From Candidatus Eiseniibacteriota bacterium (GTDB lineage Bacteria; Eisenbacteria; RBG-16-71-46), in assembly GCA_041483195.1 (NCBI GenBank), contig JBGPFC010000027.1, positions 1 to 59,284 of the forward strand: a DNA stretch of 59,284 bases, read 5' to 3'. The notes below the pieces were generated by a model that had not been told where the DNA came from, searched no databases, and worked only from the letters and a program-made list of their open reading frames with translations. Made by a program: the position numbers and the translations under genes. Positions 12,173 to 31,157 of the stretch are shown piece after piece (the first letter of the stretch is position 1; every line of letters begins with the position of its first letter).

Positions 12173-12426
12173 AACGGGCGGACGGGGGTTCGCCCGATGC
12201 TCACCGACGCGACGCGCTCATTATAGTCTCTCCGGCATGAGCGAGCGCACTCAATTCGCGCCTGACGCGGCGCGGGTCGATGAGGCGCCGGGCGAGGACG
12301 CGCTCGACCTCGCCTGGTGCCGCGCTCGTCCGTGCGGCTGAGACATGCACGGGTGCTTTCACGTAGCCTTCCGGCTTCCACGTGTCGAGCGGTTTCGCAG
12401 CACCACCCGATCCCGGAGTCCACGCC

Positions 12427-14472
12427 GTGAAACGAGCGCTCATCCTGATGCTTCCCGTCGTCCTCCTGACCGCCGCCGCTCCATCCCCATCGCCCCCCGC
12501 GATCGCCGACGCGGATCGCTACCTCGCGCAGTTCGTGGATCCCTCGGTCTCGCCACGCGACGACTTCTTCCACTACGCCGTGGGCAAGTGGCTCCGCGAG
12601 CATCCCATTCCCGCCAACGAACGCTCGTGGGGAATCAGTCACGTCGTGCAGGAGGAGACCTACCAGCGGCTGGTTGCGATCAGCGGCGACGAAGCCGCAG
12701 ACGCGAACGCTCCCGCCGGGAGCAACGCGCAGAAGATCGGGGATTTCTGGTACGCGGCGATGGACTCGGCCACGAGCGCCCGGCAGGGCATCGAGCCGCT
12801 GGCCGAGGAATTCGGACGCATCCGGGCGGTGCGCGACCGCAAGGGCCTGCTCGATGAGATCGCCCATCTCCAGTACATCGGCGTCGGCGCCATGTGCGGC
12901 CTCTACATCTTCCAGGACGAGAGGAACAGCGACCGTTACGCGGTCCACCTCTACCAGGGCGGCCTCGGGCTGCCGAACCGGGACTACTACTTCGACACGG
13001 ACGACCGATCGAAGATGCTGCGCCGCGAGTACGTCACCCACGTCGCACGCATGTTCCAGCTGCTCGGCGACGACTCCACCAGCGCCCGCGCGAACGCCTC
13101 GACCGTGATGAGCCTCGAGACCGAGCTGGCAGGCGCCTCTCGTAAGCTCGCGGACATGCGCGATCCGATCGCGAACTACAACGCGATGTCGGTCGACGGG
13201 GTCGCGACGCTGGCGCCCTCCGTTCGCTGGCGGGAGTTCCTCGCGGAGGGGAATATACGCGGACTCGACAGCGTCGTCGTGGGGCAGCCCGAGTTCTTCA
13301 AGCAGCTCGAGAAGTCCCTCAGCACGCGGAGCCTCGACCAGTGGAAGACCTATCTCCGCTGGCAGCTGGTGGGCGCCTTCGCCGCGGAGGCGGGCGGCCG
13401 CTTCGACGAGCAGAACTTTCATTTCTTCGGCACCATCCTGAACGGCACCCCCGAGCAGCGCCCGCGCTGGAAGCGGATGCTCGACGAGGAGGAGGGCTAC
13501 CTCGGCGATGCGCTCGGTCAGCTCTACGTGCAGCGCTACTTCTCGCCGCGGACCAAGGCGCGCTACGAGAAGCTCACCGACGACATCTTCGCGGCGTTTC
13601 GCGAGCGCATCCGCGCGCTCGACTGGATGAGCGAGTCCACGCGTCAGCGCGCGCTGGCCAAGCTGAACGCGGTCACCAAGAAGGTCGGCTACCCCGAGCA
13701 CTGGCGGGACTACTCGAGCTACCGGGTGGACCGCGGCTCGTTCCTCGGAAACTGCCTGCGCGGCAACGTGTGGCGGACCGAGTACTACATCCAGAAACTT
13801 CACAAGCCGGTGGACCGCACCGAGTGGGAAATGACGCCGCAGACCTACAACGCATACTACAACCCGTCGAACAACGAGATCGTGCTGCCCGCCGCCATCT
13901 TCATCCTGCCCGGGATCGCGGACTCCCTCGTCGACGACGCGATCGTCTATTCGTACGCGGGCGGCACGACCATCGGGCACGAGATCACGCACGGCTTCGA
14001 CGATGAGGGGCGCCAGTTCGACGAGCACGGAAACCTGCAGAACTGGTGGACCGCGGAGGACGAGACGGAGTTCAAGCGCCGCACCGCGCTCATCGTCCGC
14101 CAGTTCGACGACTACGTCGCCGTCGGCGATCTGCACGTGAACGGCAACGCGACCCAGGGCGAGAACATCGCCGACCTCGGAGGAAGCCTGCTCGGCTGGG
14201 ACGCCTTCACCCGGACCGAGCAATACAAGCGGGGCGCGCCGGTCGGCGGGCTCACGCCCGCGCAGCGTTATTTCATCGGCTGGGCGCTCGGCTGGATGAA
14301 TCAGCTGCGCCCGGAGAATCTTGCGGTGCGCGTCAAGACCGACGTCCACGCGCCGAGCTTCCTGCGGGTCACCGGTCCGGTCTCGAACCTGCCTCAATTC
14401 TACGAGGCCTACGGGGTGCGCCCGGGCGACCGGATGTACCGCGCCGATTCGGTGCGGGTGAAGATCTGGTGA
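12427..14472 (+). CDS. M13 family zinc metallopeptidase (neprilysin/PepO-like), secreted
   Basis: Signal peptide, DDFFHY, NAYYNPSNNEIVLPAA, GHEITHGFDD (HExxH) and GENIAD. GTG start after GGAG. Confidence 0.95.
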   Translation: MKRALILMLPVVLLTAAAPSPSPPAIADADRYLAQFVDPSVSPRDDFFHYAVGKWLREHPIPANERSWGISHVVQEETYQRLVAISGDEAADANAPAGSNAQKIGDFWYAAMDSATSARQGIEPLAEEFGRIRAVRDRKGLLDEIAHLQYIGVGAMCGLYIFQDERNSDRYAVHLYQGGLGLPNRDYYFDTDDRSKMLRREYVTHVARMFQLLGDDSTSARANASTVMSLETELAGASRKLADMRDPIANYNAMSVDGVATLAPSVRWREFLAEGNIRGLDSVVVGQPEFFKQLEKSLSTRSLDQWKTYLRWQLVGAFAAEAGGRFDEQNFHFFGTILNGTPEQRPRWKRMLDEEEGYLGDALGQLYVQRYFSPRTKARYEKLTDDIFAAFRERIRALDWMSESTRQRALAKLNAVTKKVGYPEHWRDYSSYRVDRGSFLGNCLRGNVWRTEYYIQKLHKPVDRTEWEMTPQTYNAYYNPSNNEIVLPAAIFILPGIADSLVDDAIVYSYAGGTTIGHEITHGFDDEGRQFDEHGNLQNWWTAEDETEFKRRTALIVRQFDDYVAVGDLHVNGNATQGENIADLGGSLLGWDAFTRTEQYKRGAPVGGLTPAQRYFIGWALGWMNQLRPENLAVRVKTDVHAPSFLRVTGPVSNLPQFYEAYGVRPGDRMYRADSVRVKIW

Positions 14473-15219: not shown

Positions 15220-15729
15220 ATGTACGTATCTCTCAGGCGCACCCTCGCGATCGCGTTCGCGGCCGTGGCGATTCTCGCCCCGGCGCTCGCCTTCGCGGAT
15301 GGCGACGTCCACGTCGCGCTCACCGCGCAGCGGGTGACGGTCACCGATGGCCACGACGCGTACCTGCCGGCCGACAAGGCGCGGCCGGGCGACGTGATCG
15401 AGTACCGCGCCGTCTACCGTAACGACGGCCGCGGCACGGTGCGCGACATGTTCGCCACGCTGCCGGTGCCGAACGGGCTCGAGTACCTGCCGAAGACGGC
15501 GGCGCCCGCGGTGGTCCTCGCGAGCACCGACGGCCAGTCCTTCTCCGCGGTCCCGCTCGTGCGCAGGGAGCGCACGGCCGACGGACGCGAGGTCGTTCGG
15601 GAGGTCGCCCTCTCGGAATACCGCGCGCTGCGCTGGCCGATCGGGACGCTGGCGGCCAGGGAATCGCGCACGGTCCGCGCGCGCATGCGGGTCGCCCCGC
15701 TCGCGTCCGTGGCCGTCGTCGCGCACTGA
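15220..15729 (+). CDS. Small secreted DUF11-like protein (operon gene A)
   Basis: Signal peptide ending ALAFA; ARPGDVIEYRAVYRN...PVPNGLEY...GTLAARESRTVRARMRV; GGAGG RBS. Confidence 0.88.
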   Translation: MYVSLRRTLAIAFAAVAILAPALAFADGDVHVALTAQRVTVTDGHDAYLPADKARPGDVIEYRAVYRNDGRGTVRDMFATLPVPNGLEYLPKTAAPAVVLASTDGQSFSAVPLVRRERTADGREVVREVALSEYRALRWPIGTLAARESRTVRARMRVAPLASVAVVAH

Positions 15730-15868: not shown

Positions 15869-18481
15869 ATGAACGCCCTGAAGAACGCTGGCTTCGGCCG
15901 GCGCCTCATCGTCAGCATCGCCGCTGTCGCGCCGATGCTGGGAACTCTCGCCCTGCTGGCGACCGCGGCTCACGCCGCCCCGCCGGCGGGCACGCCGATC
16001 GGCAACACGGCGACCGCGACGTACGTCGACGCGGCGTCGCAGACTCACACCGTCACCTCGAACCCTGTGACGACGACCGTCCAGCAGGTCGCGAGCTTCA
16101 CGCTCACGGCGAACGGCACGCGCACCGCGGCGCCCGGCGGGCAGGCGGTCTTCCCTCATGTGCTGACCAACACGGGCAACGGCACCGACACCTTCGCGCT
16201 GACGTCGTTGAACCTCGGCGGTGACAACTTCGACATGACGGGCCTCGCGATGTACGCGGACGCCGATGGCAACGGCGTCGCTGACAACTTCACGCCGCTG
16301 GCCACCACCGGGCCCCTCGCTCCGGGTGGGCAGTTCCAATTCGTCCTGATGGGCAACGTCCCGGGCGCCCAGGTGGCCGGCGACATCGCCCGCGCGCGCG
16401 TCTCGGCGATGAGCGGCTTCGACGCAGCGCAGACGGCGAGCAACGACGATCAGGTCACGGTCACGGGCAACGCCGTGATGTCGGTGACCAAGTCGATCAA
16501 TCAGAACAACGGCGCTTCGCCGAGCGGCCCGTACACCTACACCCTCTCGTACGCGAACTCGGGCAACGCGACCGCGACCGCGGTGCGCCTGACCGACGTG
16601 ATCCCGGCGGGCATGACGTACGTGGCGGGCAGCGCGCGCTGGAGCGTGACGGGCGCGACGGCGCTGACGGATGCGGACTCGACCGACGCGCAGGGCGCCG
16701 TTCCGAACACGGTGCGATTCGACTTCAATGTCGCGACCGGCGGAGCGGTCACCGCGCAGCTGGCGCAGGTGCCCCCCGGGCAGTCCGGAAGCGTGACCTT
16801 CCAGATCAACGTGAACGCGGGCCTCGCGCCGCAGGTCATCGACAACTCCACGCGCTACGCGTACAACGACGGGGCCGCGAACGTCGGTCCGTTCTTCACC
16901 AACCTCGCGTCCTTCACCGTGAACCAGGCGGTCAGCCTGACGTTCGCCGGCCAGACCGTGGCCAGCGCGCTGCAGGGCGCGGTCGTAACGTTCACGAACC
17001 AGCTCGTCAACACCGGCAACGGGTCCGACTCGTTCGACATCACGGCGAATCTCGGCTCGTTCCCGGCCGGCAGCTCGGCCACGCTCTACCAGAGCAACGG
17101 CGTCGCGCTGCTCACCGACACGAACGGCAACGGCATCCCGGACACCGGTCCCGTCGCGGCCGGCACGTCGTACGACGTGATCGTCAAGGTGCAGCTGCCG
17201 TCGGCCGCGACCGGCGGTCCGTTCTCGATGACGAAGACGGCGACGTCGTTCTCGAACCCGCTGGTCTCGGCCGTCGCGACCGATGTCCTCACGACGATCG
17301 TTGGCAACACGGTCGACGTGACGAACAATTCGGCGCTGCCGGGCGCTCCGGGCGCCGGCGCCGGCCCCGAGGTCGCGTACGTGATTCTCAACGCCACGAA
17401 CCCGGGCACGACCACGCGCCTCACGCTGTATGTGAACAACACCAGCGCCCAGAACGACAACTACGACCTCGCGGCCAGCACCGACAACACGTTCGGCTCG
17501 CTGACGCTGCCGGCCGGTTGGACCGTGACGTTCCGCAACGCGGCGAACAGCGTCATCACCAACACCGGCGTCATCGCCGGCGGCGGGGCGACGCTGGTTT
17601 ACGCCGACGTGGACGTGCCCGCGGGCGCGGCGGCGGCGGACGTGGACCTGTTCTTCCGCGGGCGCTCGCCCGTCAGCGGGGCGCTCGACCGCATCCACGA
17701 CCTCGTGCGCGTCAGCGTCGTCCGCAGCCTGACGCTGGTGCCGAACAACACCGCCCAGGTGATCCCGGGTGGGTTCGTGGTGTATGCGCACATGCTGACC
17801 AACACCGGCAACGTCCTCGAGGGCAACGCCACCGGGAGCTTCGTGTCGCTCGCGTCCGCGAACGACCAGGCCGGCTGGAGCTCGGCGTTGTACTGGGATA
17901 CGAACGGCTCGGGAATCTTCGACGGCGGCGATCAGCCGCTGACGGATCTCTCGGCGCTCGGCGGGCTCGCGCCCGGCACCAGCGTTCGGCTGTTCGTGCA
18001 GGTGTTCGCGCCGGCCGGCGCTCCGCTCGGGCAGTTGAACACGACCACGGTCTCGGCGACGACGTCGAATCTCGCATACACCGATCCGGTCCCGGCGGTC
18101 GCGAACGCGACGGATGGCACCACGGTAATCAACGGCCAGCTGACGATCGCCAAGACGCAGAGCATGGACCGCGACTGCAATGGCCTGGCGGACTCGACCT
18201 TCACGTCGACCAACCTCGCCTTCGGCGCGATTCCGGGCGCCTGCATTCGCTACGAGATCACCGTGACGAACATCGGCACCACGGCGGTCACCGGCGTCGT
18301 GGTGAACGACGCGACCCCGGCGAACACGTGGTCGTGGAACGCAGCTTCGGCGAGCACGACCGTCGGCTCGATCGTGGTTCCGGCGGACGGCGCCGCGGGA
18401 GCGGTGACGGCGGCCATCGGCACGCTGGGACCCGGGCAGTCGGCGGTGATCCAGTTCAGCGTGCGGATCGTCTTCCCGTAA
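15869..18481 (+). CDS. Secreted multi-Ig/DUF11 protein (operon gene B; putative fibre shaft subunit)
   Basis: Signal peptide ending ATAAHA; T/N/A/V-rich beta protein; repeated H/N-x-L-x-NTGN units; DxDGNG-type loops; one complete and one C-terminally incomplete DUF11 domain. Confidence 0.9.
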   Translation: MNALKNAGFGRRLIVSIAAVAPMLGTLALLATAAHAAPPAGTPIGNTATATYVDAASQTHTVTSNPVTTTVQQVASFTLTANGTRTAAPGGQAVFPHVLTNTGNGTDTFALTSLNLGGDNFDMTGLAMYADADGNGVADNFTPLATTGPLAPGGQFQFVLMGNVPGAQVAGDIARARVSAMSGFDAAQTASNDDQVTVTGNAVMSVTKSINQNNGASPSGPYTYTLSYANSGNATATAVRLTDVIPAGMTYVAGSARWSVTGATALTDADSTDAQGAVPNTVRFDFNVATGGAVTAQLAQVPPGQSGSVTFQINVNAGLAPQVIDNSTRYAYNDGAANVGPFFTNLASFTVNQAVSLTFAGQTVASALQGAVVTFTNQLVNTGNGSDSFDITANLGSFPAGSSATLYQSNGVALLTDTNGNGIPDTGPVAAGTSYDVIVKVQLPSAATGGPFSMTKTATSFSNPLVSAVATDVLTTIVGNTVDVTNNSALPGAPGAGAGPEVAYVILNATNPGTTTRLTLYVNNTSAQNDNYDLAASTDNTFGSLTLPAGWTVTFRNAANSVITNTGVIAGGGATLVYADVDVPAGAAAADVDLFFRGRSPVSGALDRIHDLVRVSVVRSLTLVPNNTAQVIPGGFVVYAHMLTNTGNVLEGNATGSFVSLASANDQAGWSSALYWDTNGSGIFDGGDQPLTDLSALGGLAPGTSVRLFVQVFAPAGAPLGQLNTTTVSATTSNLAYTDPVPAVANATDGTTVINGQLTIAKTQSMDRDCNGLADSTFTSTNLAFGAIPGACIRYEITVTNIGTTAVTGVVVNDATPANTWSWNAASASTTVGSIVVPADGAAGAVTAAIGTLGPGQSAVIQFSVRIVFP

Positions 18482-18634: not shown

Positions 18635-21600
18635 ATGAACCGAGCAACGCCCCTCGACCGTCGGTGTCGCGCCCTGCGGGCGTGGCTTCACGCGTGGGCG
18701 CTCGGGTTCGCTCTGCTCTCCGCTTCCACCGTCCGCGCCGCGCCGCTCACCGGCACCCCCATCGACAACACGGCCTACGCGGCAGGGAGCGACTCGCTCA
18801 CGGGCGCGCCGCTTTCGGAGGCGAGCAACACCGTCACCGCCATCGTTCAGGCGCTCGAGGGCGTATCGCTGTGGCCCGACCGCCGCGCGTCGGCGGCCGC
18901 GGGCGCCAGCGTCACGTTCGCGCACCAGATCTTGAACCGCGGCAACGCGAGCGCCGACTTTCGCATCGACGCGATCGACCTCGGAGCTGACGCTTTCGAC
19001 TTCGGCGCGTTCTCGCTCGTGGATGACGCGAACCGCGACGGCGCCGTGGGACCGGGCGACATTCCGGTCGCCAACGGCGGCGCGCTGACGCTCGCCGCGG
19101 GCGACTCGGCCTACCTGCTCGTCACCGTGAGCGTTCCACTCACCGCGCCCGGCTCGGCGCTCGGCCGTTTCTCGCTTCGCGCCACGAGCCTCTTCCAGTT
19201 CGTGACAGCGTCGGTCACGGACTCCGTCGACACGAACGCTCTCTCGCAGCCCCCGGCGCTCGCTTTCTACTCCGGCCCGGGCTACGCCGCGACCATCCGC
19301 GCGACCGCGCTCGGCGCGCCGCTCTTCGTGCAGGCCTCGGCGCCGCAGTGCAACCTGAGCCCGGGCGAGCCCGACACCGTGCGCATCACCCTCACGTCGC
19401 AGCTGACCGGCGACTCGGACACCTTTGGTGCCATCGAGACCGGCCCCGCCACCGGGATCTTCCGCATCAACGGCGCGCCCGTCTCCGCGGTGCAGGGCTC
19501 CGCGCAGACCGGAGACGGCGTGGTCGAGCAGGCGCGCGGCGATCTCATCACCGCCACGCTGCCCGGTTGCGGCGCGACCGAGACGCGCGCGAACGTGTGG
19601 GTCGAGCCGAGCGGCACGGTGTTCGATTCGCGCAGCGACGCCGCGGTGGCCGGGGCGCGGGTTCAGCTCGTGGACCTGACGGGCGCCGGGAACGGCGGCG
19701 CGGCGGGCGGGCGCGCGACCGTCCTCGCGCTCGATGGCGTCACGCCGGCGCCCGCCGACGTGCTCACCGACGCCGCTGGCCGCTTCTCGTTCCCGGTCGT
19801 GAACGCGAGCACCTACCGGCTAGTGGTGACGCCGCCGCCGCCTTACCGATTCCCTTCGCTCGCCGCGATCGGGTCGCTCCCCGCGGGCCGCGTGCTGGAC
19901 GTCGCCGGTTCGTACGGCGGGCCATTCACGATCGCGACCAATGGCGAGCCGGTGCGCCTCGACGTGCCCGTCGACGGCAATGCATCCGTCGCGTTGTTCG
20001 TCGAGAAGACCGCGTCCCGGCCCGTGGTCGAGTGGGGCGACGAGTTCGACTTCCGCATCAGGGTCGCGAATCGCTCCGACAGCGCACTCGCGTCGGTGAC
20101 GCTCGCCGACGGCCTCCCTCCGGGGTTCGTGTTGGTGCGCGGAACCGCGCGCCTCGCCGGCGCGCCGGCCGCCGATCCGCAGGGGGGCGCGGGCCCCGCG
20201 CTCGGATTCGCGCTCGGCGCGCTCGCGGCGCACGACGAGCTCGAGCTGCTCTACCGCGTTCGCGTCGGCCCCAACGCGGCCCCCGGGGACGCGCGCAGCG
20301 AGGTCACGGCCCACGCGGGTGGGGTGGTGTCGAACACCGCGACCGCGACGGTCCGCGTGCAGGGCGACGCGTTTGCAGACGAAGGCCTCGTGACCGGCAC
20401 GGTGTACTACGACGCGAACGTCGACGGCATGCAATCGGGCGGCGAACCCGGCCTCGCCGGCGTCCGCCTTTACCTCGACGACGGCACCTTCGCCGTGACC
20501 GACGAGCACGGCCGCTACAGCTTCACCGGGGTCACGCCCCGCACCCACGCCCTCAAGGTGGACACGGCCACGCTTCCGCCGATGGCGAAGATCGCCGATC
20601 GCGACCACCGAGGCGCGGGTCTCCCGGGCGTCCGCTTCGTCGATCTGACGCGTGGCGACCTCGTGCGCTCGGATTTCGCCGCCGTCGGGGACACCACGCT
20701 GTTGCGCGACGCGACCGACCGGCGCGTGGCGCTCGCGAGCCGCGGCGCCGACGAGCGCGCGCGCTGGCTGGCCCTCGGGCCCGAGGCGCTCGCGGGTGCG
20801 CGCGGTCTCACCGACCCGCGCGCGTTGCCCGCCTCGAGAATCGTGACCGGCGAGAGCGAGCTTCCGGTCGTGATGACCTCGCCGGCCGCGGCCGTCGCCC
20901 CTTCGTCCGTATCGCCCGTGGCGCTCGAGGCCACGGCGATCGACCACATCCTGCCGACGCTCGAGCCCGAGTTGGGCTTCGTGGGGCTCAGCGACTACGA
21001 CACGGTTGCGACCAACCAGATCCCGGTCGCGGTCAAGGGCCGCCTCGGCACCCGGCTAGTGCTGCGAGTCAACGGCACGCCGCTGCCCGAGTCGCGCGTC
21101 GGCCGCCGGTTCCTGGCGCCGCGCCAGGATCTGGAAGTGTGGGAGTACATCGGCGTGCCGTTGCGGCCCGGACTCAACGTGCTCGAGCTCGCGCCGCCGC
21201 CGGGCGGCCGTGTCTCGCTGCGCATCGTGGCGCCCGGCCCGTTCGCGCGACTCGAGCTGAGCGCGCCGCGCGGCGTGCCCGCCGACGGCCACAGCGCGGC
21301 CTCGCTGCTGCTGCGTGCGGTGGACATCGCGGGCGTCCCGGTCGGCGAGCGGACCCTGGTCACACTCGAAGCGGGCGCCGGGCGGCTCTCGGCATCCGAC
21401 CTGGACCCCGCCTCGCCGGGCCTGCAGCTCGCGATCGAGGGCGGCACGCTGCGGGTGCCGCTGGTCGCGCCCGCGACGCCGTCCACGTACAAAGTCACGG
21501 CGTCCGCGGGGGATGTCCGCGTCGCCGAGAACGTGGAGTTCGTCCCCGACCTGCGCCCCCTGATCGCGGTCGGCGCGCTCGAGGGCGTGGTCTCGCTGCG

Positions 21601-23989
21601 CCATTTCCGTCACGGCACCGACGTGGGCGCGCAGCCGGGCGATGGCTTCGAGGCGCCCATCGAACAGTTCGCCAGCTCGAGCCAGAACGGCCGCGCGTCC
21701 GCCGCGGCCCACGGTGCCATGTTCGTGAAGGGCCGCGTGCGTGAACGCCTGCTGCTCACGGTGGGTTGGGACTCGGATCGCCCACGCGACCAGCGGCAAT
21801 TCCGAGACCAGCAGCCCGAGCGCGGCTTCCCCGTGTTCGGCGACGCCGCTGCCCGCGGCTGGGAGGCGCAGTCCACCGGGCAGCTCTACGCTCGGCTCGA
21901 ACAACGCGACGCGTCGGTGCTCTACGGCGATTTCGTCACCGGGGGCGCGGCCACTCGCTCGCTCGGCAACTACAGTCGCAGCCTCACCGGCGCGGCGGCA
22001 CGATGGGAGACACCCGCGGGACTCGTGAGCGCGTTCTCGAGCCGCGACCGCTCGACCCACGCGATCGACGAGCTCCGTGGTGAGGGCACCTCGGGTCCCT
22101 ACCAGCTCACGCGGCTGCCCATGCTCGAGAACTCCGAGCGCGTCGAGATCATCGTGCGCGACCGCGCGCAGCCCTCGATCGTGCGCTCCGCCACGGGACG
22201 CCAGCGCTTCACCGACTACGAGATCGAGCCCCTGACCGGGCGCCTCCTCATGCGCGCGCCGGTGCCGAGCGTGGACGCCGACCTGAATCCCATGTACGTG
22301 CGCGTCACCTACGAAGTCACGGGCGGCGCTGCGCCAGCTTGGGTGCATGGCATGGAGGGACGCGTGCGGGTGAGTCCGCGGCTCGATCTGGGCGGCACCT
22401 ACGTCGACGACCACGATCCGTCGGCGCCATTCGAGCTGCGCTCGATCACGGCCTCCACGCGCCTCGACCCGGGCACGGTGTTCGAAACCGAGTGGGCCGC
22501 GACTCGACATCTCGGCGGAGCGAACGGCGACGCGGGGCGCTTCGAGCTACGGCGCGAGGACCCGGGCCTGCGCGCGCGCGTGTGGGGCGCGGCGACCTCG
22601 ATCGGATTCGACAACCCCGGCGCCGGCATGGCCAGCGGCCGAAGCGAAGCCGGCGTGAACCTGAGTGCGCGTCTGGCGGGCCGGACACGGCTGAACACCG
22701 AGGCGCTGTTCTCATCCGACGCGCTGGGCCGCGAGCGGCGTGAGGGTCTCATGATGTCGCTCGACCGCGCGCTCGACGACGCGCTGCGCGGCGAGCTGGG
22801 CCTGCGCTGGGCGCGTGCGCGCCGGCGGGGCGCGACCTCCGACCCGGCGAGCGCCGCGGTGCGCGCCAAGCTTTCCGCGCAGTGGCCGAAGCACCCGGAA
22901 TGGAGCGGCTACGGCGAGCTCGAGCAGGACACGCGCGAATTCGACCGCCGCATGGCCGCCCTCGGCGGCGAATATCGCTTCAGCTCGAGGGGTCGCCTCT
23001 ACACGCGCCACGAGCTGCTCTCCAGCTTCTCGTCGGCGTGGGCGCTGGCGGGTGCTCAGAGCCAGGCGCAAAGCGTGGTCGGCATCGACGCCGACGTCGC
23101 GAAGGACGCCCACGTTTTCAGCGAGTACCGGCTCGGGGACGTGCTCGGCGGTCGTGAGGCGCAGGCGGCGGTCGGGCTTCGCAACGGCTGGGCGCTTCCG
23201 GGCGGCACCCGCGTCGGGACCGCGATCGAGCGCGTGGATCCGCTCCGCGGCAGCGACGCCGGCGCGAGCACGGCGATCACCGGCAGCGTGGAGTGGACCG
23301 GCGACGCGGTGTGGAAGGGCTCGTCGCGCGCGGAACTGCGCACGAGCCGGTCCTCCGACCAGTTCCTGCAGGGCATGGCGGGGGCCGTGAAGCTCGACTC
23401 CGCATGGACCGGACTCGGGCGCTATCTGCTCACGCTCGAACGCCGGCACCGTCAGGGCAGCGCCGCACGCGAGCGGATGCAGCTCGCGGCGGCGTATCGC
23501 CCGGGCGGCGCGTGGGACGCGCTCGCCCGGTGGGAGCTGCACTACGACCTCGAGACGATTCCGCCGGAGACGCCCGTGCGCCGCGTCGCGAACGTCGCGG
23601 GGTTCGCGGCCACCGGGCGATCGAAGGGGTACGAGGGGTCGCTCGCGTGGGCGGGCAAGCTCACGCGGGAGCAATCGGCGGGGATCACCAGCACGGGCGG
23701 CGCGGAGTGGCTGCACGGCCGCGTCACGCGCGACATCGGCCGCAGCTGGGACTGCGGTCTCACGGCCAGCGTGCTCGCGGGTCGCCGGCTCGCGCAACGA
23801 CGGTACGGCTTCGGCGCAGAGGCCGGGAGAATTCTCCCCGGCGGCACCTGGCTGTCGCTGGGCTTCAATCGGTTCGGCTACGTCGACGACGAGCTGACGG
23901 GGGAGGAGTGGACGCGCACCGGCGCCTACCTGCGCGTGCGGGTCAAGTTCGACGAGACCACATTCCAGCACTGGGAGGTGCGTCCGTGA
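18635..23989 (+). CDS. Large DUF11/SdrD-B-domain protein with probable C-terminal outer-membrane beta-barrel (operon gene C)
   Basis: Signal peptide ending STVRA; Ig domains; complete DUF11 (LFVEKTAS...ADGLPPG...SNTATATV); SdrD-B-like GTVYYDANVDG..GEPGLAGVRLYL; about 700 aa of amphipathic strands ending GAYLRVRVKFDE. Confidence 0.85.
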   Translation: MNRATPLDRRCRALRAWLHAWALGFALLSASTVRAAPLTGTPIDNTAYAAGSDSLTGAPLSEASNTVTAIVQALEGVSLWPDRRASAAAGASVTFAHQILNRGNASADFRIDAIDLGADAFDFGAFSLVDDANRDGAVGPGDIPVANGGALTLAAGDSAYLLVTVSVPLTAPGSALGRFSLRATSLFQFVTASVTDSVDTNALSQPPALAFYSGPGYAATIRATALGAPLFVQASAPQCNLSPGEPDTVRITLTSQLTGDSDTFGAIETGPATGIFRINGAPVSAVQGSAQTGDGVVEQARGDLITATLPGCGATETRANVWVEPSGTVFDSRSDAAVAGARVQLVDLTGAGNGGAAGGRATVLALDGVTPAPADVLTDAAGRFSFPVVNASTYRLVVTPPPPYRFPSLAAIGSLPAGRVLDVAGSYGGPFTIATNGEPVRLDVPVDGNASVALFVEKTASRPVVEWGDEFDFRIRVANRSDSALASVTLADGLPPGFVLVRGTARLAGAPAADPQGGAGPALGFALGALAAHDELELLYRVRVGPNAAPGDARSEVTAHAGGVVSNTATATVRVQGDAFADEGLVTGTVYYDANVDGMQSGGEPGLAGVRLYLDDGTFAVTDEHGRYSFTGVTPRTHALKVDTATLPPMAKIADRDHRGAGLPGVRFVDLTRGDLVRSDFAAVGDTTLLRDATDRRVALASRGADERARWLALGPEALAGARGLTDPRALPASRIVTGESELPVVMTSPAAAVAPSSVSPVALEATAIDHILPTLEPELGFVGLSDYDTVATNQIPVAVKGRLGTRLVLRVNGTPLPESRVGRRFLAPRQDLEVWEYIGVPLRPGLNVLELAPPPGGRVSLRIVAPGPFARLELSAPRGVPADGHSAASLLLRAVDIAGVPVGERTLVTLEAGAGRLSASDLDPASPGLQLAIEGGTLRVPLVAPATPSTYKVTASAGDVRVAENVEFVPDLRPLIAVGALEGVVSLRHFRHGTDVGAQPGDGFEAPIEQFASSSQNGRASAAAHGAMFVKGRVRERLLLTVGWDSDRPRDQRQFRDQQPERGFPVFGDAAARGWEAQSTGQLYARLEQRDASVLYGDFVTGGAATRSLGNYSRSLTGAAARWETPAGLVSAFSSRDRSTHAIDELRGEGTSGPYQLTRLPMLENSERVEIIVRDRAQPSIVRSATGRQRFTDYEIEPLTGRLLMRAPVPSVDADLNPMYVRVTYEVTGGAAPAWVHGMEGRVRVSPRLDLGGTYVDDHDPSAPFELRSITASTRLDPGTVFETEWAATRHLGGANGDAGRFELRREDPGLRARVWGAATSIGFDNPGAGMASGRSEAGVNLSARLAGRTRLNTEALFSSDALGRERREGLMMSLDRALDDALRGELGLRWARARRRGATSDPASAAVRAKLSAQWPKHPEWSGYGELEQDTREFDRRMAALGGEYRFSSRGRLYTRHELLSSFSSAWALAGAQSQAQSVVGIDADVAKDAHVFSEYRLGDVLGGREAQAAVGLRNGWALPGGTRVGTAIERVDPLRGSDAGASTAITGSVEWTGDAVWKGSSRAELRTSRSSDQFLQGMAGAVKLDSAWTGLGRYLLTLERRHRQGSAARERMQLAAAYRPGGAWDALARWELHYDLETIPPETPVRRVANVAGFAATGRSKGYEGSLAWAGKLTREQSAGITSTGGAEWLHGRVTRDIGRSWDCGLTASVLAGRRLAQRRYGFGAEAGRILPGGTWLSLGFNRFGYVDDELTGEEWTRTGAYLRVRVKFDETTFQHWEVRP

Positions 23990-26900
23990 TGCGCCGCGCG
24001 TTGATCGGCGCGCTCGCGGCGCTGGCCGTCGTGCTGATCGCCTCGCCGGCCGCTTCGCAGGTCGTGCGCGCGTTCGGCACGCGCTTCAGCACCAACCAGC
24101 CGGGCGACATCACGCTGATCGGCAACACGATCATGACCTGCAATGGCGGCGGCGCCTGCACCAACGGGCGCAACGGTGCCGGCGGCAGCGTGAACGACAA
24201 CGACTTCACGATGGTGTACACCGACGTCGACGCCGACGGCACGACCTTCTCATCGAGCAGCGCCACGCTCGCGCTGCCGCCCGGCGCGACGGTGCTGTGG
24301 GCGGGATTGTATTGGGGCGGCTACACGAACAACGCAGCGCGCAACACCTGCCGGCTGCAGACACCGGCCGCGGGCTACGCCGCCCTCACCGCGGCGCAAA
24401 TTGATGCCAGTGGCCAGGCATACCAGTGCTTCGCGAACGTCACCGCGAACGTGCAGGCGGGCGGCAGCGGCGCGTACACCGTTGCGAACGTGCGCTCGAC
24501 GCCCAACTCGACGAACGTGCACGGCGGCTGGTCGATCGTGATCGTCTACAGCCTCGCCTCCCAGCCGCCGCGCAACCTGGTCGTGTTCGACGGCTACGCG
24601 CTGGTCTCGGGCACCACGACGGTCAACATCAACGTGACGGGCTTCGTGACGCCGCCCGCCGGCATCGTGAACACCAAGCTGGGCGTGGTCGCGTACGAAG
24701 GCGACCTCGGATTCCCCGGGGATGCGTTCCGGCTGAACGGCACGTCGCTCGCCGACGCGAACAACCCGGCGAACAACTTCTTCAACAGTTCGATCAGCCT
24801 GCTCGGCACCACGTTCGCCGCGAAGAACCCGAATTACCTGAACCAGCTCGGCTTCGACTCCGACCTGATCTCCGCGAATGGCATCCTGCCGAACGGCGCG
24901 ACCAGCGCGACCATCACGCTGACCACGAACGGCGACACGTACTACCCGGGCGTGGTGGCGTTCGCGACCGACCTGTACGCGCCGGTGTTCGACGCCGCCA
25001 ACTTCACCAAGACCGTGTCCGACGTGAACGGCGGCAGCGTACAGCCGGGCGACGTGCTCGAGTACACGGTCACGATGCGCAACAACGGCCAGGACCACGC
25101 GATCGCCTGCGTCATGCGCGACACGATCCCGGCCAACGTCGCATACGTCGCGGGCTCGCTGCAGGTGGTGAGCGGGCCGAACGCCGGCGCCAAATCCGAC
25201 GCGGCGGGCGACGACCAGATGGAGTACGCCGCCGCCTCGCGCTCGGTGGTCGCGCGGTTGGGGGCCGGAGCGACCTCGGCGGCCGGCGGGCAGATGGACA
25301 TTGGCGTCACGAGCAGCGTTCGCTTCCGGGTGTCGGTCACGCCGCCGGCGCCCAACGGCAGCTCGGTCTCGAACCAGGGCTGGCTGGCGTTCACGGGCGC
25401 GCAGTCGGGGGTGAACTTCGTCGCGCAAAGCGACGGGAACGTGGTCGTCGGCGGGCTGCAGCCCACGGTCGTCACGGTGGCGGCCTCGCGCATGCTCGGC
25501 ACGGTCTTCGAGGACGTGGGCTACGGCGGCGGCGCGGGCCGCTCGCTCGCAGCATCGGGCGGCAGCGGCCGGCCCGGCGCGCGCGTCGAGCTCTACGACG
25601 GAGCCGGCGCTTTCATACAATTCGCCCGCACCGACGCGACGGGCCTGTACACGTTCGACGGATGGCCGGCGGGGAGCTACACGGTGCGCATCGTGAACTC
25701 GTCGGTGCGCTCGTCGCGCCCGGGCGCCGCCGCTGGCCTGCTGCCGGTGCAGACCTGGCGAACTACCGAATCGACCGGGTCCGCGGTCGCGGTCACCGAT
25801 CATGTGGGCGGCGAGAATCCGTCGATCGTCGACGCCGACTCGAACACAACGTCCGCCACGCTCGCCTCACTCACGACCGGCGCGGCCACCCCGCAGTCGG
25901 TGACTACGGTGACGCTGGGTGCCGGCGACATCGCCGGCCTGGACTTCGGGCTCAACTTCGACACCATCGTGAGCACGCGCGACGCGGGACAGGGCTCGCT
26001 CCGGCAGTTCCTGCTCAATGCCAACGCGCTCGGCAACGCCGGGCTCGCGCAGGCCGGGCAGACCGCGGGCGTCGAGACGTCGGTGTTCATGATCGGTGAC
26101 GGTCTCGCGCACCCGGGGCTGCGCGCGGGGACCCCGAACCTGCTCAGCGCGGGGGTCGCGCGTATCTCGCCGATCGCAACGCTCCCCGCGATCACCGACC
26201 CCGGCACGCGCATCGACGGCGAAACGCAGACGACGGACGTCGGCAACACCAACGCCACCACGATGGGCGGAGGGCTCGTGGCCGGCGTCGACGCCACGCC
26301 CGTGCCGCCGGTCGCCGGCCCCGAAGTCGAGATCCGCGACGGCGCGGGGCTCGCGATCGGCCTCGACCTGCAGGACGCCGGCGAAACGGTGGCGCGGGTC
26401 GCCATCTCCGGGTTCGGTAATGCGGCGGGCAGCGCGAACGACGCATGCGTGCGCGTGGGCGCCGCCGCGAACAACGCCACGCTGACGAATTGCGTGATCG
26501 GCGCGACCGCGCTCGCCTGGGCCGATCCCGGTGCAGCGCTGCGCGCCGGCGGAGACCTGGTGCGTGTGTCGGGGGCCGATGCCGGCACCCTCACGAGCTG
26601 CCTGCTCGGCTGGTCGGCCGGCAGCGCGCTGACGCTGGCTTCCGGCTCCGACGGCTGGATCATGAGCGGCTGCGAGCTGCGCGGCAACTCGATCGGCAAC
26701 CCCGCGCGCGGCGCGCTCTCGATCGAGGCGAGCCTGGGTTCGTCGGTGAGCGCGTGCTGGATCGGCGAAACGGAAGGCAACGGCATCGACGCGCGCACAA
26801 GCACGGGCTCGAACACGTTCACCGACGTCACCGTGCGCCGCAGCGGCCTCGGCGCCGGCGCGACCGCGGCCAGCGCGGGCGTGAGGCTGGGTGGGACCGG

Positions 26901-28917
26901 GAATCGCGTGGACCGCTGCGTGCTGACGCAGAACTTCGGCGCCGGCCTGCAGGTGCCGAGCGGCGTCACCAACAACACGCTGACGCGCAACGCAATCTCG
27001 CTCAACGGGACGATCCTGAACAACGGCGGCGCCGGCCCGTCTGGCGAGGTCGGCATCGATCTGCAGTCGCCGGGCGACGACGTCACGCAGGGCACCGCGC
27101 CGTATCGCACCCTCAATGACAACGGCGACGGCGATGCCGGCGGCAACGCGCTGCTCAACTACCCGGTACTCGCGAGCGCCGTGCTCGCGAACGGCAGCTT
27201 CACGCTCACCGGCTGGGCGCGGCCCGGCTCCACCATCGAGCTGTTCGTGAGCGACGGCGAAGCGAGCGGATTCGGCGAGGGCGCGGCCTGGTCCGCGACG
27301 TTCGTCGAGGGCTCGGGCGCCGACCTCGATGCGGGGGTCAGCGCGTACCCGGCCACGGTGAACGGGCTGGCGCAGGGCACCGACGTGACGAACCGATTCC
27401 GTTTCACCGTGGCGGCGCCTCCCGGAGTCGCCTCGGGCGTGGCGTTGACCGCGACCGCGACGATCGCGGGGACGGGCACTTCGGAGTTCTCGGGCGTGGT
27501 CCTGGTTTCGACGGGCGTGAGCATGAGCGGCTGGGCGTACGAGGACCTCAGCCACGACTCCTCGCGCGGCGCGTCCGAGGCGGGAACGGGCGCCGCGCTG
27601 TACGCGAAGCTCTACGTCAGCGGCAACCCGATCGCTTCGCAGGTCGTGCCGGTGGACGTCGCGACCGGCGCGTACGCATTCACGTTCGTCAGCTCCGGCG
27701 CGTGGGACGTGCACGTCGACACCGACTCGAATCCCGCAACGTTCGCCCCCACGTATCCCGCGGGCTGGATCGGAACGGAGAATCCGGCCGGTGTCCGCGC
27801 CTCGCTCACGGTCAACGCCACCGACGTCGCCAACGTGAACTTCGGCATGTGGCACGGCAGCCGCGTCGACGGCGTCGTGTTTCGAGACGACGGCACCGGC
27901 GGCATCGCGAACGACGGCGTGATGCAGGCGGGTGAGGCCGGGCAGTCGCCGGTCCGCGTGCGACTCGTCGCCGCAGCGTGCGCGGGCGGCGAGTGCGACT
28001 CGACGCTGACGGACGGCGCCGGCGCGTTCACGCTGTGGCTGGCCGCGGCGGCATCCGGGCCGAACGTGATGGTGCAGGCGGTCGTCGCCTCGGGCTGGCT
28101 CTCCACCGGCGGCGGGGAGGGGACGACCGGCGGCGCATACGATCGCCCCTCGGACGCCGTCAGCTTCTCCGCCGTCGCGGGCCTCCCGTACTCGGGGCTC
28201 GCGTTCGGCGGCGTGCCGCGCAATTCCTGGATCGCGCCCCAGGCGGGAACGATCGCGGCGGGCGGCGTCGCCTTCTACGCACACCGCCTCACCGCGGGCA
28301 GCGCGGGAAGCGCCTCGTTCTCGGCCGCCGAAGCGCCGTCGCCCGCGCTGCCCGGATGGAGCGTTGAGCTCTACCGCGATCTCAACTGCAACGGCGCGAT
28401 CGACGCCGGTGAGCCGATGCTGGTGCCGGCGACGGCGATCGCGCTCGCGGCGGGCTCCAGCGTATGCGTGGTGGCGAAGCACTCGGCGCCGGCGGGTGCC
28501 CCCACGGGCGCGCTCGAGACCGCGACGCTCACCGCGAGCTTCCAATACGCGAATGCGAGCCCCGCCCTCGCGGGGAGCGACGCGCTCGACGACGTGACCA
28601 CGATCGCGCTTGCAAGCGGCCTCGTCATCACGAAGAGCGTGGATCTCACGACCGCGAGGCCGGGCGATTACCTCGTCTACACGATCACCTACCTCAATCC
28701 CGGCGGTCAGGCGCTCTCGAACATCGTCCTCCGCGATGCCACCCCGGCATGGACGGTGTTCGACTCCGCCACCTGGGCCGGCCCGGGCTTCGGGATCACC
28801 GGTTGTTCGCTCGCCCAGCCGGCCGCCGGCGCCTCGGGACCGGTCTCATGGACGCTCGCGGGGACGCTCGCCCCGGGTGGAACCGGCAGCGTGACCTACC
28901 GCGTTCGGGTGCAGTAG
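23989..28917 (+). CDS. Large secreted adhesin-like protein: N-terminal beta domain, DUF11, SdrD-B-like domains, right-handed beta-helix, C-terminal incomplete DUF11 (operon gene D)
   Basis: ATG overlaps the gene C stop (TGATG); signal peptide; RDAGQGSLRQF motif preceding G/N/I-rich helix repeats; ends GTLAPGGTGSVTYRVRVQ. Confidence 0.88.
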   Translation: MRRALIGALAALAVVLIASPAASQVVRAFGTRFSTNQPGDITLIGNTIMTCNGGGACTNGRNGAGGSVNDNDFTMVYTDVDADGTTFSSSSATLALPPGATVLWAGLYWGGYTNNAARNTCRLQTPAAGYAALTAAQIDASGQAYQCFANVTANVQAGGSGAYTVANVRSTPNSTNVHGGWSIVIVYSLASQPPRNLVVFDGYALVSGTTTVNINVTGFVTPPAGIVNTKLGVVAYEGDLGFPGDAFRLNGTSLADANNPANNFFNSSISLLGTTFAAKNPNYLNQLGFDSDLISANGILPNGATSATITLTTNGDTYYPGVVAFATDLYAPVFDAANFTKTVSDVNGGSVQPGDVLEYTVTMRNNGQDHAIACVMRDTIPANVAYVAGSLQVVSGPNAGAKSDAAGDDQMEYAAASRSVVARLGAGATSAAGGQMDIGVTSSVRFRVSVTPPAPNGSSVSNQGWLAFTGAQSGVNFVAQSDGNVVVGGLQPTVVTVAASRMLGTVFEDVGYGGGAGRSLAASGGSGRPGARVELYDGAGAFIQFARTDATGLYTFDGWPAGSYTVRIVNSSVRSSRPGAAAGLLPVQTWRTTESTGSAVAVTDHVGGENPSIVDADSNTTSATLASLTTGAATPQSVTTVTLGAGDIAGLDFGLNFDTIVSTRDAGQGSLRQFLLNANALGNAGLAQAGQTAGVETSVFMIGDGLAHPGLRAGTPNLLSAGVARISPIATLPAITDPGTRIDGETQTTDVGNTNATTMGGGLVAGVDATPVPPVAGPEVEIRDGAGLAIGLDLQDAGETVARVAISGFGNAAGSANDACVRVGAAANNATLTNCVIGATALAWADPGAALRAGGDLVRVSGADAGTLTSCLLGWSAGSALTLASGSDGWIMSGCELRGNSIGNPARGALSIEASLGSSVSACWIGETEGNGIDARTSTGSNTFTDVTVRRSGLGAGATAASAGVRLGGTGNRVDRCVLTQNFGAGLQVPSGVTNNTLTRNAISLNGTILNNGGAGPSGEVGIDLQSPGDDVTQGTAPYRTLNDNGDGDAGGNALLNYPVLASAVLANGSFTLTGWARPGSTIELFVSDGEASGFGEGAAWSATFVEGSGADLDAGVSAYPATVNGLAQGTDVTNRFRFTVAAPPGVASGVALTATATIAGTGTSEFSGVVLVSTGVSMSGWAYEDLSHDSSRGASEAGTGAALYAKLYVSGNPIASQVVPVDVATGAYAFTFVSSGAWDVHVDTDSNPATFAPTYPAGWIGTENPAGVRASLTVNATDVANVNFGMWHGSRVDGVVFRDDGTGGIANDGVMQAGEAGQSPVRVRLVAAACAGGECDSTLTDGAGAFTLWLAAAASGPNVMVQAVVASGWLSTGGGEGTTGGAYDRPSDAVSFSAVAGLPYSGLAFGGVPRNSWIAPQAGTIAAGGVAFYAHRLTAGSAGSASFSAAEAPSPALPGWSVELYRDLNCNGAIDAGEPMLVPATAIALAAGSSVCVVAKHSAPAGAPTGALETATLTASFQYANASPALAGSDALDDVTTIALASGLVITKSVDLTTARPGDYLVYTITYLNPGGQALSNIVLRDATPAWTVFDSATWAGPGFGITGCSLAQPAAGASGPVSWTLAGTLAPGGTGSVTYRVRVQ

Positions 28918-29190: not shown

Positions 29191-29281
29191 GGAATCCCAT
29201 TGACCGCGCCCTGTCTGGCCATGAGGCCAGCAGGCTATCCAAGTTTTGGTTTCGCCCGCCGATAACTCGGGAGCCACTCAA

Positions 29282-29704
29282 ATGAGAATCCATTCGGGAG
29301 AGAGGAATGGTTTCTCGCTGCTGGAGTTGATGGTCGTGTTGACATTGACGGGTCTGCTGATCGCAATCGCCATCCCCACCATCACGACCTACATGAGGAC
29401 CGCACGTCTCTCGGGGGCTTCCAACACGCTGGAAGCCGACCTCCACTTCGCCCACGCCCACGCCAACGCGGAGCGCAAGACGTTCCAGATCCTCTTCAGT
29501 GCCGGTTCCTACGTTGTGAAGCGAGTGTCGCCGGCCGCCACGATCCTCACGCGGGAGATGCCCAAGGGCGTCGCGTGCGCGGCCAGCGACACCGCGACGT
29601 TCTACGCGTGGGGTCTCAGCGACCCCGTGATGATCAGGATGGCGGACGCCAGCCACGCCGACACGTTGCGGGTCGCGGCCAACGGAAGCATCAGCCATGA
29701 CTAG
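29282..29704 (+). CDS. Type IV minor pilin, FimT/FimU/GspH-like
   Basis: Class III signal RNG|FSLLELMVVL with E5. Confidence 0.88.
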   Translation: MRIHSGERNGFSLLELMVVLTLTGLLIAIAIPTITTYMRTARLSGASNTLEADLHFAHAHANAERKTFQILFSAGSYVVKRVSPAATILTREMPKGVACAASDTATFYAWGLSDPVMIRMADASHADTLRVAANGSISHD

Positions 29705-30071
29705 CCCGCGCGGTCCGGTTCGGAAGTCCGATTCGGCCGGCGTGACGCTGGTCGAGCTCATGATCGTGCTGGTCATCGTCGCGATCGGCATCATGACCCT
29801 CTCGGGGGTGCAGACGCGGTCTTCATCGGACGTCTACTCCACCGGGCGGCGCACCCGCGCGCTCGCGGTCGCGCAGACCCAGATCGAGGTCGCGCGCAGT
29901 CTCGGCTACCTGGGAGCCGTGCCGGATTCGGGGCTGACGGACGGTTTCAACTGGCGGACCGAAGTGGACTCGGTCGATTTCGGTCTGCTGCGGGCGAGGG
30001 TCACGGTCACCTGGGCGGAGTCCGGAACGCCGTCCTCCGTGCAGCTCGTCAACCTGATGTCCGCGCGATGA
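29697..30071 (+). CDS. Type IV minor pilin, PilV-like
   Basis: SAG|VTLVELMIVL; position in the cluster; ends RVTVTW. Confidence 0.8.
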   Translation: MTSPRGPVRKSDSAGVTLVELMIVLVIVAIGIMTLSGVQTRSSSDVYSTGRRTRALAVAQTQIEVARSLGYLGAVPDSGLTDGFNWRTEVDSVDFGLLRARVTVTWAESGTPSSVQLVNLMSAR

Positions 30072-30670
30072 AGCCTTCCGTGCGACCTCTCCGTACGTCC
30101 GCTCGCCCCGACTCCGGCATGACGCTGGTCGAGATCATGATCGTGCTGGGGATCCTGGCGACGGTGATCACGATCGTGACCTCGATGCTCATGACCTCGA
30201 GCCGTGTCGAATCCAGGACCGTTCGCCGGGCCAGGGTCCAGGGCGACTGCCGGCAGACGGTGTCGCTCATGAGCATCGAGCTGCGCCAGACCGGGGCGGA
30301 TCCGCATAATCCTCCCATCGGCCTCGTGGGGCTGGTCGCGGCGGACGACAAGTCGATCCACGTGCGTGCGGACCTCAACGCGGACGGCCTGATCGCGACG
30401 GCCGAGCCCTCCGAGGACGTCACGTACGCGTACGACAGCGCCGCAGCGGTCGTCAGACGGGACCCCGGAACCGGCGCAGCCGTCGTTCTCACCAACGTCA
30501 CCGGCATGGTGCTCTCGTACTTCGACTCCGACAACCAGCCGGTCGTGCCGGTCCCGTTGAGCACGGCCGACGCAGCGCGCGTCCACTCCATCGGGCTGGC
30601 GATCACCGCCGAGGACCGCGACTCGCAGCCCATCACGCTCACGACCCGGATCACCCTGAGGAATCAGTGA
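30068..30670 (+). CDS. Type IV minor pilin, PilW-like
   Basis: DSG|MTLVEIMIVL, ELRQTG, ends TRITLRN; ATGA overlap with the previous gene. Confidence 0.82.
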   Translation: MKPSVRPLRTSARPDSGMTLVEIMIVLGILATVITIVTSMLMTSSRVESRTVRRARVQGDCRQTVSLMSIELRQTGADPHNPPIGLVGLVAADDKSIHVRADLNADGLIATAEPSEDVTYAYDSAAAVVRRDPGTGAAVVLTNVTGMVLSYFDSDNQPVVPVPLSTADAARVHSIGLAITAEDRDSQPITLTTRITLRNQ

Positions 30671-30708
30671 GGCGGAACGATTTCCGCCGGCGACTGGAGG
30701 AGCTTGGT

Positions 30709-31155
30709 ATGACCCCTCGATTTGTCAATGAACGCGGAGCCGCGATGGTCCTGGCGCTCGGCGTGCTCGCGGTGCTCGCGGTGCTCGCGATGGTCGTCGT
30801 GGCCATCGTGGTATCCGAGAAGCAGACGGCGCTGTCCGACTACTCCGCCGACCGCTCCTTCTACTCGGCCGACGCCGCGACCGAAGCGGGGGTCAACTGG
30901 ATCCGCTCGCAGCCGATTCCACCGCCGATCATGGACGCGAGCAGCAATGTGTACCTCGCGAACGGGTTCACCGCGCTGAGCAACGATCACAACTACAAGT
31001 TCGACGTTCAGTTCGTCCGCAAGCAGCTCCGGCCGGGCTGGAGCGTCGAGTACAAGGACTACGTCTTCGACGTTGCGGCCACGGGCACCAGCGTGCAGGG
31101 GTCGGAGTCCAAACTCGACGTCAACGCCACTCGGCTCTACCGGGAGGGTTACTGA
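30709..31155 (+). CDS. Type IV minor pilin, PilX-like
   Basis: NERG|AAMVLAL lacking E5 (typical of PilX), FYSADAATEAG; GGAGGAG RBS. Alternative GTG start at 30667. Confidence 0.82.
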   Translation: MTPRFVNERGAAMVLALGVLAVLAVLAMVVVAIVVSEKQTALSDYSADRSFYSADAATEAGVNWIRSQPIPPPIMDASSNVYLANGFTALSNDHNYKFDVQFVRKQLRPGWSVEYKDYVFDVAATGTSVQGSESKLDVNATRLYREGY

Positions 31156-31157
31156 TC

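Follow-up and report, generated by a model that had tools for sequence, protein, structure and literature searches.

The window analyzed in this study comprises 59,284 nucleotides (positions 1 to 59,284 of the forward strand of contig JBGPFC010000027.1, assembly GCA_041483195.1) from Candidatus Eiseniibacteriota bacterium and has a G+C content of about 69%. By their source names, close homologues also point to Candidatus Eisenbacteria. Within this window, four co-oriented genes lie in one run on the + strand; they are designated here A, B, C, and D, and all four encode proteins with signal-peptide-like N-termini. We propose that A-B-C-D is probably an operon for a surface fiber, the subunits of which would be joined via a naturally split CLIPPER (DUF11) isopeptide domain and closed by an autocatalytic Lys-Asn lock. 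Strand-complemented assembly of the subunits is very likely, and the formation of a covalent Lys-Asn bond between them is, in our estimation, likely. An initial annotation of the window had predicted such an intermolecular bond from the nucleotide sequence, and its interpretation was supported in silico by the profile comparisons and structural models described below.

The last domains of B and D are truncated, and their missing strands are carried by B and C

DUF11 was renamed CLIPPER in 2025, when the structure 9IFR showed an intramolecular isopeptide bond joining a first-strand Lys and an Asn in a late strand, an Asp completing the triad (PMC12617251); the bond gives thermostability and protease resistance. 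The initial annotation had assumed that DUF11-type repeats are akin to Lys-Asn isopeptide domains, and this kinship is borne out in that DUF11 is itself a proven domain of this kind. When the four proteins were compared with family profiles, B, C, and D scored 38.6, 40.3, and 50.9 bits, respectively, on Pfam DUF11 (PF01345; cut-off 24.6 bits), and 52.5, 34.5, and 65.4 bits, respectively, on TIGR01451 (NCBIfam; cut-off 24 bits), all above the cut-offs. A scored 18.6 bits on Pfam DUF11, under the cut-off (E 0.0025, profile positions 11-85 of 114). Internally, B, C, and D carry complete domains; that of C spans positions 3-96 of the 114 in the Pfam profile. In contrast, the alignments of the terminal domains of B and D both stopped at position 84 (that of D starting from position 2), and that of A at position 85. 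The terminal domains of B and D thus are not full seven- to nine-strand beta-sandwiches in one chain, and both proteins terminate 1-3 residues past their last strand.

Gene B (15869..18481, +; 18481 is the last base of the stop codon) encodes a shaft subunit of 870 amino acids that consists of a signal peptide, a donor hairpin, Ig-like domains (one of them a complete CLIPPER), and a C-terminal acceptor half-domain. The donor hairpin (APPAGTPIGNTATATY...TVQQVA, 15977..16093, +) starts at 15977, the first codon past the predicted signal peptide (AAHA/APPAG), and matches the last two CLIPPER strands. The acceptor half-domain (18104..18478, +) has seven strands, and B terminates 3 residues past the last of them. 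Gene C (18635..23989, +) encodes an anchor of 1784 amino acids with a signal peptide, a donor hairpin (APLTGTPIDNTAYAAG...AIVQA, 18740..18853, +), passenger domains (CarboxypepD_reg, a complete CLIPPER domain, and SdrD_B), and a giant C-terminal beta-barrel. Gene D (23989..28917, +) encodes a tip protein of 1642 amino acids with a signal peptide, DUF11, SdrD_B, and beta-helix domains, and a C-terminal acceptor half-domain (28600..28914, +); it has no donor hairpin and terminates in YRVRVQ. The start of D is the ATG at 23989, which corrects the initial annotation and gives a one-base overlap with the TGA of C; this stop/start overlap (TGATG, 23987-23991) suggests translational coupling.

The complete internal domain of C (FVEK ... 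ADGLP ... VVSNTATATV; 19997..20380, +) served as the reference for an unsplit domain and as a ruler in BLASTP alignments of the split halves. Residues 5-93 of this domain aligned with the whole last domain of D (E 5e-7), both finishing in YRVRV, and residues 17-93 aligned with the last domain of B. Moreover, residues 110-121 (AGGVVSNTATAT, the Asn strand) aligned with the mature N-terminus of B (AGTPIGNTATAT). The full Lys/Asp/Asn triad is present yet divided: the acceptor supplies Lys and Asp, and the donor, on another subunit, supplies Asn. The chain 9IFR_A matched the complete domain of C (E 2.6e-4) with its Lys (VEK/VVK) and Asp (LADGLP/LNDTLG) in register. HMMER set the Asn strand of 9IFR against a loop of this domain; on motif grounds, we consider the later VVSNTATA strand to be the true equivalent. 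Among the sequence searches of the PDB, only that with the complete domain of C reached 9IFR, and those with B and with a profile of 28 orthologues gave no match even at E≤1.

The residues named in the initial annotation were each found in frame. In the acceptors, the first-strand Lys is encoded by AAG at 18152-18154 in B (QLTIAKTQ) and by AAG at 28633-28635 in D (LVITKSV), and the Asp of the DxxP motif by GAC at 18308-18310 in B (VVNDATP) and by GAT at 28735-28737 in D (VLRDATP). In the donors, Asn is encoded by AAC at 16004-16006 in B (TPIGNTATA) and at 18767-18769 in C (TPIDNTAYA).

To place these matches in the context of the genome, hidden Markov models (HMMs) of the donor and acceptor halves were built from relatives and run on 33,692 stop-to-stop open reading frames (ORFs) of at least 60 codons from the 4.17-Mb assembly (96.8% complete). 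The donor HMM matched the N-termini of B (62.4 bits) and C (16.4 bits), and the terminal acceptor HMM matched B (132.8 bits), D (56.5 bits), and A (17.1 bits); internal domains of B, C, and D were also matched. No match to either HMM was found among these ORFs outside the A-D locus. Because the matches are confined to the locus, the pattern goes beyond chance.

Between its Lys strand and the strand that follows, the B acceptor has a long loop with two cysteines, Cys 770 and Cys 792 (window positions 18170-18244; DRDCNG ... PGACIRY), which were invariant in 28 of 28 orthologues. These two residues probably form a disulfide clasp that is particular to B-type acceptors. The spacing between Lys and Asp is about 50-54 residues in B-type acceptors, compared with 34 in the tip acceptors, which are without the long Cys loop.

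Natural fusions join an acceptor to a donor in one chain

An exhaustive search with B yielded 3,840 cluster representatives at E≤0.001. Two of these, P0124 (3,865 amino acids) and P0125 (2,023 amino acids), are tandem arrays of B-like modules in one chain. According to the half-domain HMMs, the full-length B-type acceptor domains of both proteins are followed, 3-5 residues later in the same chain, by a donor hairpin at 5 of 5 junctions (for example, ...TFGVQI-AAGTPAGSASVDNQTSATY...). Lys and Asn are kept at all 5 junctions, as is an acid, which is Asp at four of them and Glu at the fifth. The fusion thus joins, almost exactly, what would be the C-terminus of B set against the mature N-terminus of B.

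The C-termini of both fused proteins carry other Ig-like repeats and dockerin-like GDLNCDG...DD repeats, with no acceptor half-domain. P0125 begins with a donor hairpin past its leader.

The two halves are predicted to dock

The last 125 residues of B were modelled with AlphaFold2 from 41 sequences, giving seven strands at a predicted local distance difference test (pLDDT) score of 88.5. When this model was aligned with 9IFR (VIA-align), a Z score of 8.4 was obtained over 89 aligned residues with a root-mean-square deviation of 2.2 Å, which is on a par with the best matches and within 1 Z unit of adaptin mu, macroglobulin, and pilin domains. Foldseek returned weak, generic beta-sandwich matches for the same model; two were at E≤0.001, both a chitinase, and 9IFR ranked 11th (E 0.013).

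The acceptor (B residues 746-870) was then modelled together with the donor (B residues 37-78), each with its own alignment, in three runs. The interface score ipSAE was 0.73, compared with 0.00 for the best control; of 157 solved complexes, 116 attained the mark set for this score, as did 2 of 215 mismatched pairs. The runs shared at least 95% of their contacts, and the pLDDT of the partner was at least 80. The predicted interface consisted of residues 756-764 (with K762) and 805-815 (with D814) of the acceptor, and of residues 44-55 (with N46) and 62-75 of the donor. In the model, the first donor strand (48-53) pairs with strand 808-814, and residue 760 of the Lys strand contacts donor residues 48, 50, 62, and 64. 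The initial annotation had expected K, D, and N to be adjacent in a model of the complex. All three residues lie in the predicted interface; the K762-N46 pair fell outside the 25 best-defined contacts listed. The docking model is consistent with adjacency of the triad.

The triad and the gene order are conserved across phyla

In an alignment of 28 orthologues of B, N46, K762, and D814 were invariant. A larger alignment consisted of B and 127 of the 150 listed representatives, the other 23, which lie outside 780-1050 amino acids (fragments or long fusions), having been dropped. In these 128 sequences, N was kept in 125, K in 126, and D in 126. The exceptions for N were two N-terminal fragments and P0141, in which the Asn lies one residue earlier. 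P0154 and P0271, both of the shaft type, have jointly lost the Lys (to Leu) and the Asp (to Thr or Leu) and have kept the donor Asn. All 128 representatives terminate 1-8 residues past the last strand.

Species-representative genomes were also scanned with a profile of C. At least 600 stretches were returned, with at least 503 confirmed relatives of the anchor from Eisenbacteria, Burkholderiales, Nitrospira, Verrucomicrobia, Acidobacteria, and others, and the best 80 loci were taken. These 80 came from Eisenbacteria, Burkholderiales, Usitatibacter, Steroidobacter, Nitrospira, Verrucomicrobia, Acidobacteria, Entotheonella, and Alkanindiges. When the half-domain HMMs were run on the 8,045 ORFs of the 80 loci and the window, 127 terminal acceptor and 139 donor matches were obtained, from which the ORFs were classified; the class counts take in three proteins of the window, the window's A being under the HMM threshold in this run. 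The acceptor HMM could not align the Lys strand of the tip acceptors because B-type domains have a longer loop after it, and the Lys of tip acceptors was located by a motif-and-distance rule, which also catches an unrelated Lys in 12 A-like proteins.

All 55 proteins of the shaft class (donor plus terminal acceptor) kept N, K, and D. In the tip class (acceptor only, n=50), every one of the 50 proteins had the Asp, and 49 had the Lys motif; the one without it is a 99-residue fragment. The anchor class (donor only, mostly more than 1,600 amino acids, n=47) had Asn in 42 proteins, Ser in 4, and Ala in 1. Small A-like proteins (n=22) had Leu (14) or Val (8) at the Asp position. Since Asp is missing from 22 of 22 A-like acceptors, the fold is tolerant of its absence, and the strictness with which it is kept elsewhere speaks for a chemical role. 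Donors can thus dispense with Asn, as in some anchors, and acceptor-like folds with Asp, as in the A-like proteins; every polymerizing subunit in the loci set keeps the triad. The anchors of the Ser/Ala type (L018, L029, L063, L066, and L070, and also P0324, P0326, P0336, and P0338) are accompanied at the same locus by a shaft that retains N, K, and D, so the joint between fiber and anchor may be non-covalent in those lineages.

The genes followed a conserved order on one strand, [A]-shaft-anchor-tip. Among 70 sources with any classified ORF, shaft, anchor, and tip were found together in 27, and 11 of these also had an A-like gene; many of the loci are cut by contig ends.

Taken together, the truncated acceptors, the match of the donors to the missing strands, the natural fusions, the docking result, and the 55 of 55 shaft proteins with an intact triad bear out the proposal of the initial annotation that the triad is divided between subunits.

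Proposed assembly and alternative explanations

In the assembly that we propose, the C-termini of B and D would offer the first seven CLIPPER strands, together with the strand-A Lys and the catalytic Asp of a DxTP motif, and cleavage of the signal peptide would expose the Asn-bearing two-strand hairpin at the N-termini of B and C. The hairpin of one subunit would then enter the open domain of another and complete the beta-sandwich, a step that the modelling supports. Docking would gather Lys, Asp, and Asn, and a Lys-Asn isopeptide would form autocatalytically with the loss of ammonia. The fiber would run from the tip D (acceptor only) through a shaft of multiple B subunits (donor plus acceptor) to the anchor C (donor only, with an outer-membrane barrel). 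A, which is acceptor-like and without Lys and Asp, might hold the donor hairpins reversibly, although this role is speculative.

Several points weigh against this assembly or temper the evidence for it. The 5 of 47 anchors with Ser or Ala and the 2 of 127 shaft representatives without Lys and Asp indicate that docking is evidently possible without the bond; if so, conservation of the triad could partly be inheritance from an intramolecular ancestor. The likeness of the acceptor model to 9IFR is tied with that to unrelated beta-sandwiches, and the K762-N46 pair is missing from the listed best-defined contacts. Halves of a split domain also tend to pass complex prediction through their likeness to solved intact domains, and the docking result speaks for complementarity of the modelled halves rather than for binding in the cell. 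In addition, the proposed assembly would require some means of restraining autocatalysis in the periplasm and of passing the subunits across the outer membrane.

The subunits could instead be joined by strand complementation only, with no isopeptide, the triad being a legacy of the intramolecular ancestor or a matter of packing. Such a fiber would fit the Ser/Ala anchors and the two shaft representatives that lack Lys and Asp, and there is a precedent in BsaA (a TasA-family protein described below), in which oligomers of the N35A mutant stay stable in sodium dodecyl sulfate until heated (10.1101/2024.11.04.621531). We nevertheless regard it as unlikely, given that every one of the 55 shaft subunits, drawn from several phyla, has the full triad, that Asp is dispensable to the fold in all 22 A-like acceptors, that Lys and Asp were lost jointly in the sole two cases of loss, and that the homologous intact domain bonds in a crystal structure (9IFR, PMC12617251). 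Alternatively, the N-terminal hairpin of B could fold back into the C-terminal domain of the same chain, so that the product would be a closed and possibly cyclised monomer and no polymer. B does hold both halves on one chain, and the docking model is blind to the difference between cis and trans. However, the donor of C has no acceptor in its own chain and the acceptor of D has no donor, as is likewise the case for the 47 anchors and 50 tips, so those halves can be satisfied in trans only; the two ends of B are separated by about 700 residues of Ig-like domains, and the fused relatives connect consecutive modules rather than both ends of one module. Self-complementation of B is therefore very improbable. 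Least probable of all is that these proteins are ordinary, independent DUF11 adhesins, with an N-terminal motif that serves in sorting or processing and C-termini whose shortness has no significance. Single-chain adhesins made of DUF11 repeats are common, and none of the A-D-type proteins has been studied so far; this explanation is nonetheless at variance with the identical profile cut point in B, D, and A (84-85 of 114), with the termination of 128 of 128 representatives 1-8 residues past the last strand, with the match of the N-terminal motif to the missing strand and the existence of natural fusions, and with a docked complex that passed its controls and a gene order conserved across phyla.

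The predicted anchor barrel and protein A

The C-terminal 830 residues of C (21497..23986, +) are predicted to be an all-beta region forming a barrel of the outer-membrane type. Pfam detected no family in these residues. The AlphaFold2 model of this part had a mean pLDDT of 72.7, with values of 80-92 over most of residues 280-780, and contained about 34 long strands from model residue 265 on. Foldseek returned 95 matches at E≤0.001, with low TM-scores of 0.1-0.27. Except for four ApoB100 entries, the matches listed were outer-membrane barrels or barrel-containing complexes (SlpA, LptD, MtrB, BtuB, PapC/FimD, and SprA). The C-terminal part of C thus models as a giant outer-membrane-type beta-barrel.

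Gene A (15220..15729, +) encodes a small secreted protein with an acceptor-like DUF11 domain in which the Lys and Asp are missing (ALTAQRV; FATLPVP). A is a candidate chaperone or cap, an assignment that we offer as speculation.

Past their last strand, A-like proteins have hydrophobic tails of 10-15 residues without Asn, for example APLASVAVVAH in the window (15690-15729) and APVVASA in Polaromonas loci. Such a tail could act as a self-capping or chaperone-type donor strand.

Comparison with known fiber systems

In chaperone-usher pili (Fim, Pap), a tip subunit has only a groove, shaft subunits have both an N-terminal donor and a groove, growth stops with the addition of a last subunit, and the outer membrane holds a barrel. 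D, B, and C follow the same grammar of tip, shaft, and terminator. However, the subunits of chaperone-usher pili are held together non-covalently by one donor strand each, and in the locus described here the barrel is fused to the last subunit. PapC and FimD were among the many barrels that matched the model of C (TM-scores 0.15-0.27), and the Pfam tables (E≤0.01) for A, for the whole of C, and for the C-terminal 927 residues of C contained no PapD-like chaperone or usher family. The proposed fiber also resembles sortase pili, which are covalent, Lys-linked polymers of tip, shaft, and basal subunits with isopeptides in Ig-like domains, but in those pili the links are made by sortase at an LPXTG motif. 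No LPXTG-type motif was found at the end of B (...FSVRIVFP) or of D (...YRVRVQ); a sortase gene was not searched for. SpyTag/SpyCatcher and SnoopTag/SnoopCatcher were engineered from CnaB-type domains of Gram-positive bacteria, each as a strand with one of the residues and a remainder with two. In the putative pair described here, by comparison, a CnaA-like domain would have been divided by nature, with two strands serving as the tag.

The intact CLIPPER domain of 9IFR shares with the A-D locus the Pfam family, the strand-A Lys, the Asp, and the late-strand Asn; in 9IFR, however, the triad lies in one chain and stabilizes a stalk, whereas here the terminal domain stops after strand 7 and a different subunit carries the Asn hairpin at its N-terminus. 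The words "split" and "truncated" do not occur in the main text of the CLIPPER paper (PMC12617251), and the DUF11 fiber of Litorilinea is a single chain of 6,596 amino acids. No description of a split DUF11/CLIPPER fiber was found in full-text searches of the literature, supplements being outside their scope.

Among the published accounts drawn on here, the nearest mechanism in print is that of BsaA (TasA family) of Clostridium perfringens, termed "donor-strand exchange and lock," in which a strand bearing N35 enters the neighbouring subunit and N35 forms an autocatalytic isopeptide with K74, with E56 as the catalyst, as confirmed with mutants (10.1101/2024.11.04.621531). Both systems would insert an N-terminal Asn strand into a neighbour that provides a Lys and an acid; in the present case this reading comes from sequence, with all three residues in the predicted interface. 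BsaA, as described in that report, differs in having an unrelated fold and a Gram-positive host; its subunits are all of one type, the catalyst is a Glu, the donor consists of one strand, and an outer-membrane anchor is absent. The TasA family was absent from the Pfam tables of A-D, which listed DUF11-related, SdrD_B, CarboxypepD_reg, beta-helix, and similar families. The archaeal thread filaments of Sulfolobus acidocaldarius are likewise reported to combine donor-strand complementation with inter-subunit isopeptide bonds (PMC9715654), but they are archaeal and are built from a different subunit family.

Viewed more broadly, the chances are evenly balanced that these loci represent a widespread, undescribed class of covalent diderm pili, with self-ligating split-isopeptide subunits, tip-first assembly, a terminal barrel subunit of at least 30 strands that is maybe an export pore, an A-type chaperone, and many orthogonal tag/catcher pairs. 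If the bond forms, bacteria of the Gram-negative type would have enzyme-free covalent surface fibers, which would stand alongside sortase pili as a counterpart and would render the chaperone-usher logic in covalent form. Nature would then have produced a tag/catcher pair by splitting an isopeptide domain, and the loci would be a large and varied source of candidate orthogonal pairs for protein ligation, with tags of two strands. The proposal also gives hundreds of operons annotated as "DUF11 domain-containing" a testable role; cultured carriers of such operons include Polaromonas sp. JS666, Rivibacter subsaxonicus DSM 19570, and Alkanindiges illinoisensis DSM 15370.

Neighbouring genes

Upstream of A, an M13-family (neprilysin-like) metallopeptidase with a leader is encoded at 12382-14472 (+); no link between it and the fiber genes was seen. 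Directly 3′ of D, the region 29246-33803 (+) encodes four prepilin-type proteins (N_methyl motif; one weak PilX_N match) and a PilY1-like protein with VWA and beta-propeller domains. The type IV pilin and PilY1 genes were considered as a part of the fiber system and rejected, because they are absent from the A-shaft-anchor-tip order conserved at other loci. The genes of this region look like a minor-pilin set of a type IV pilus.

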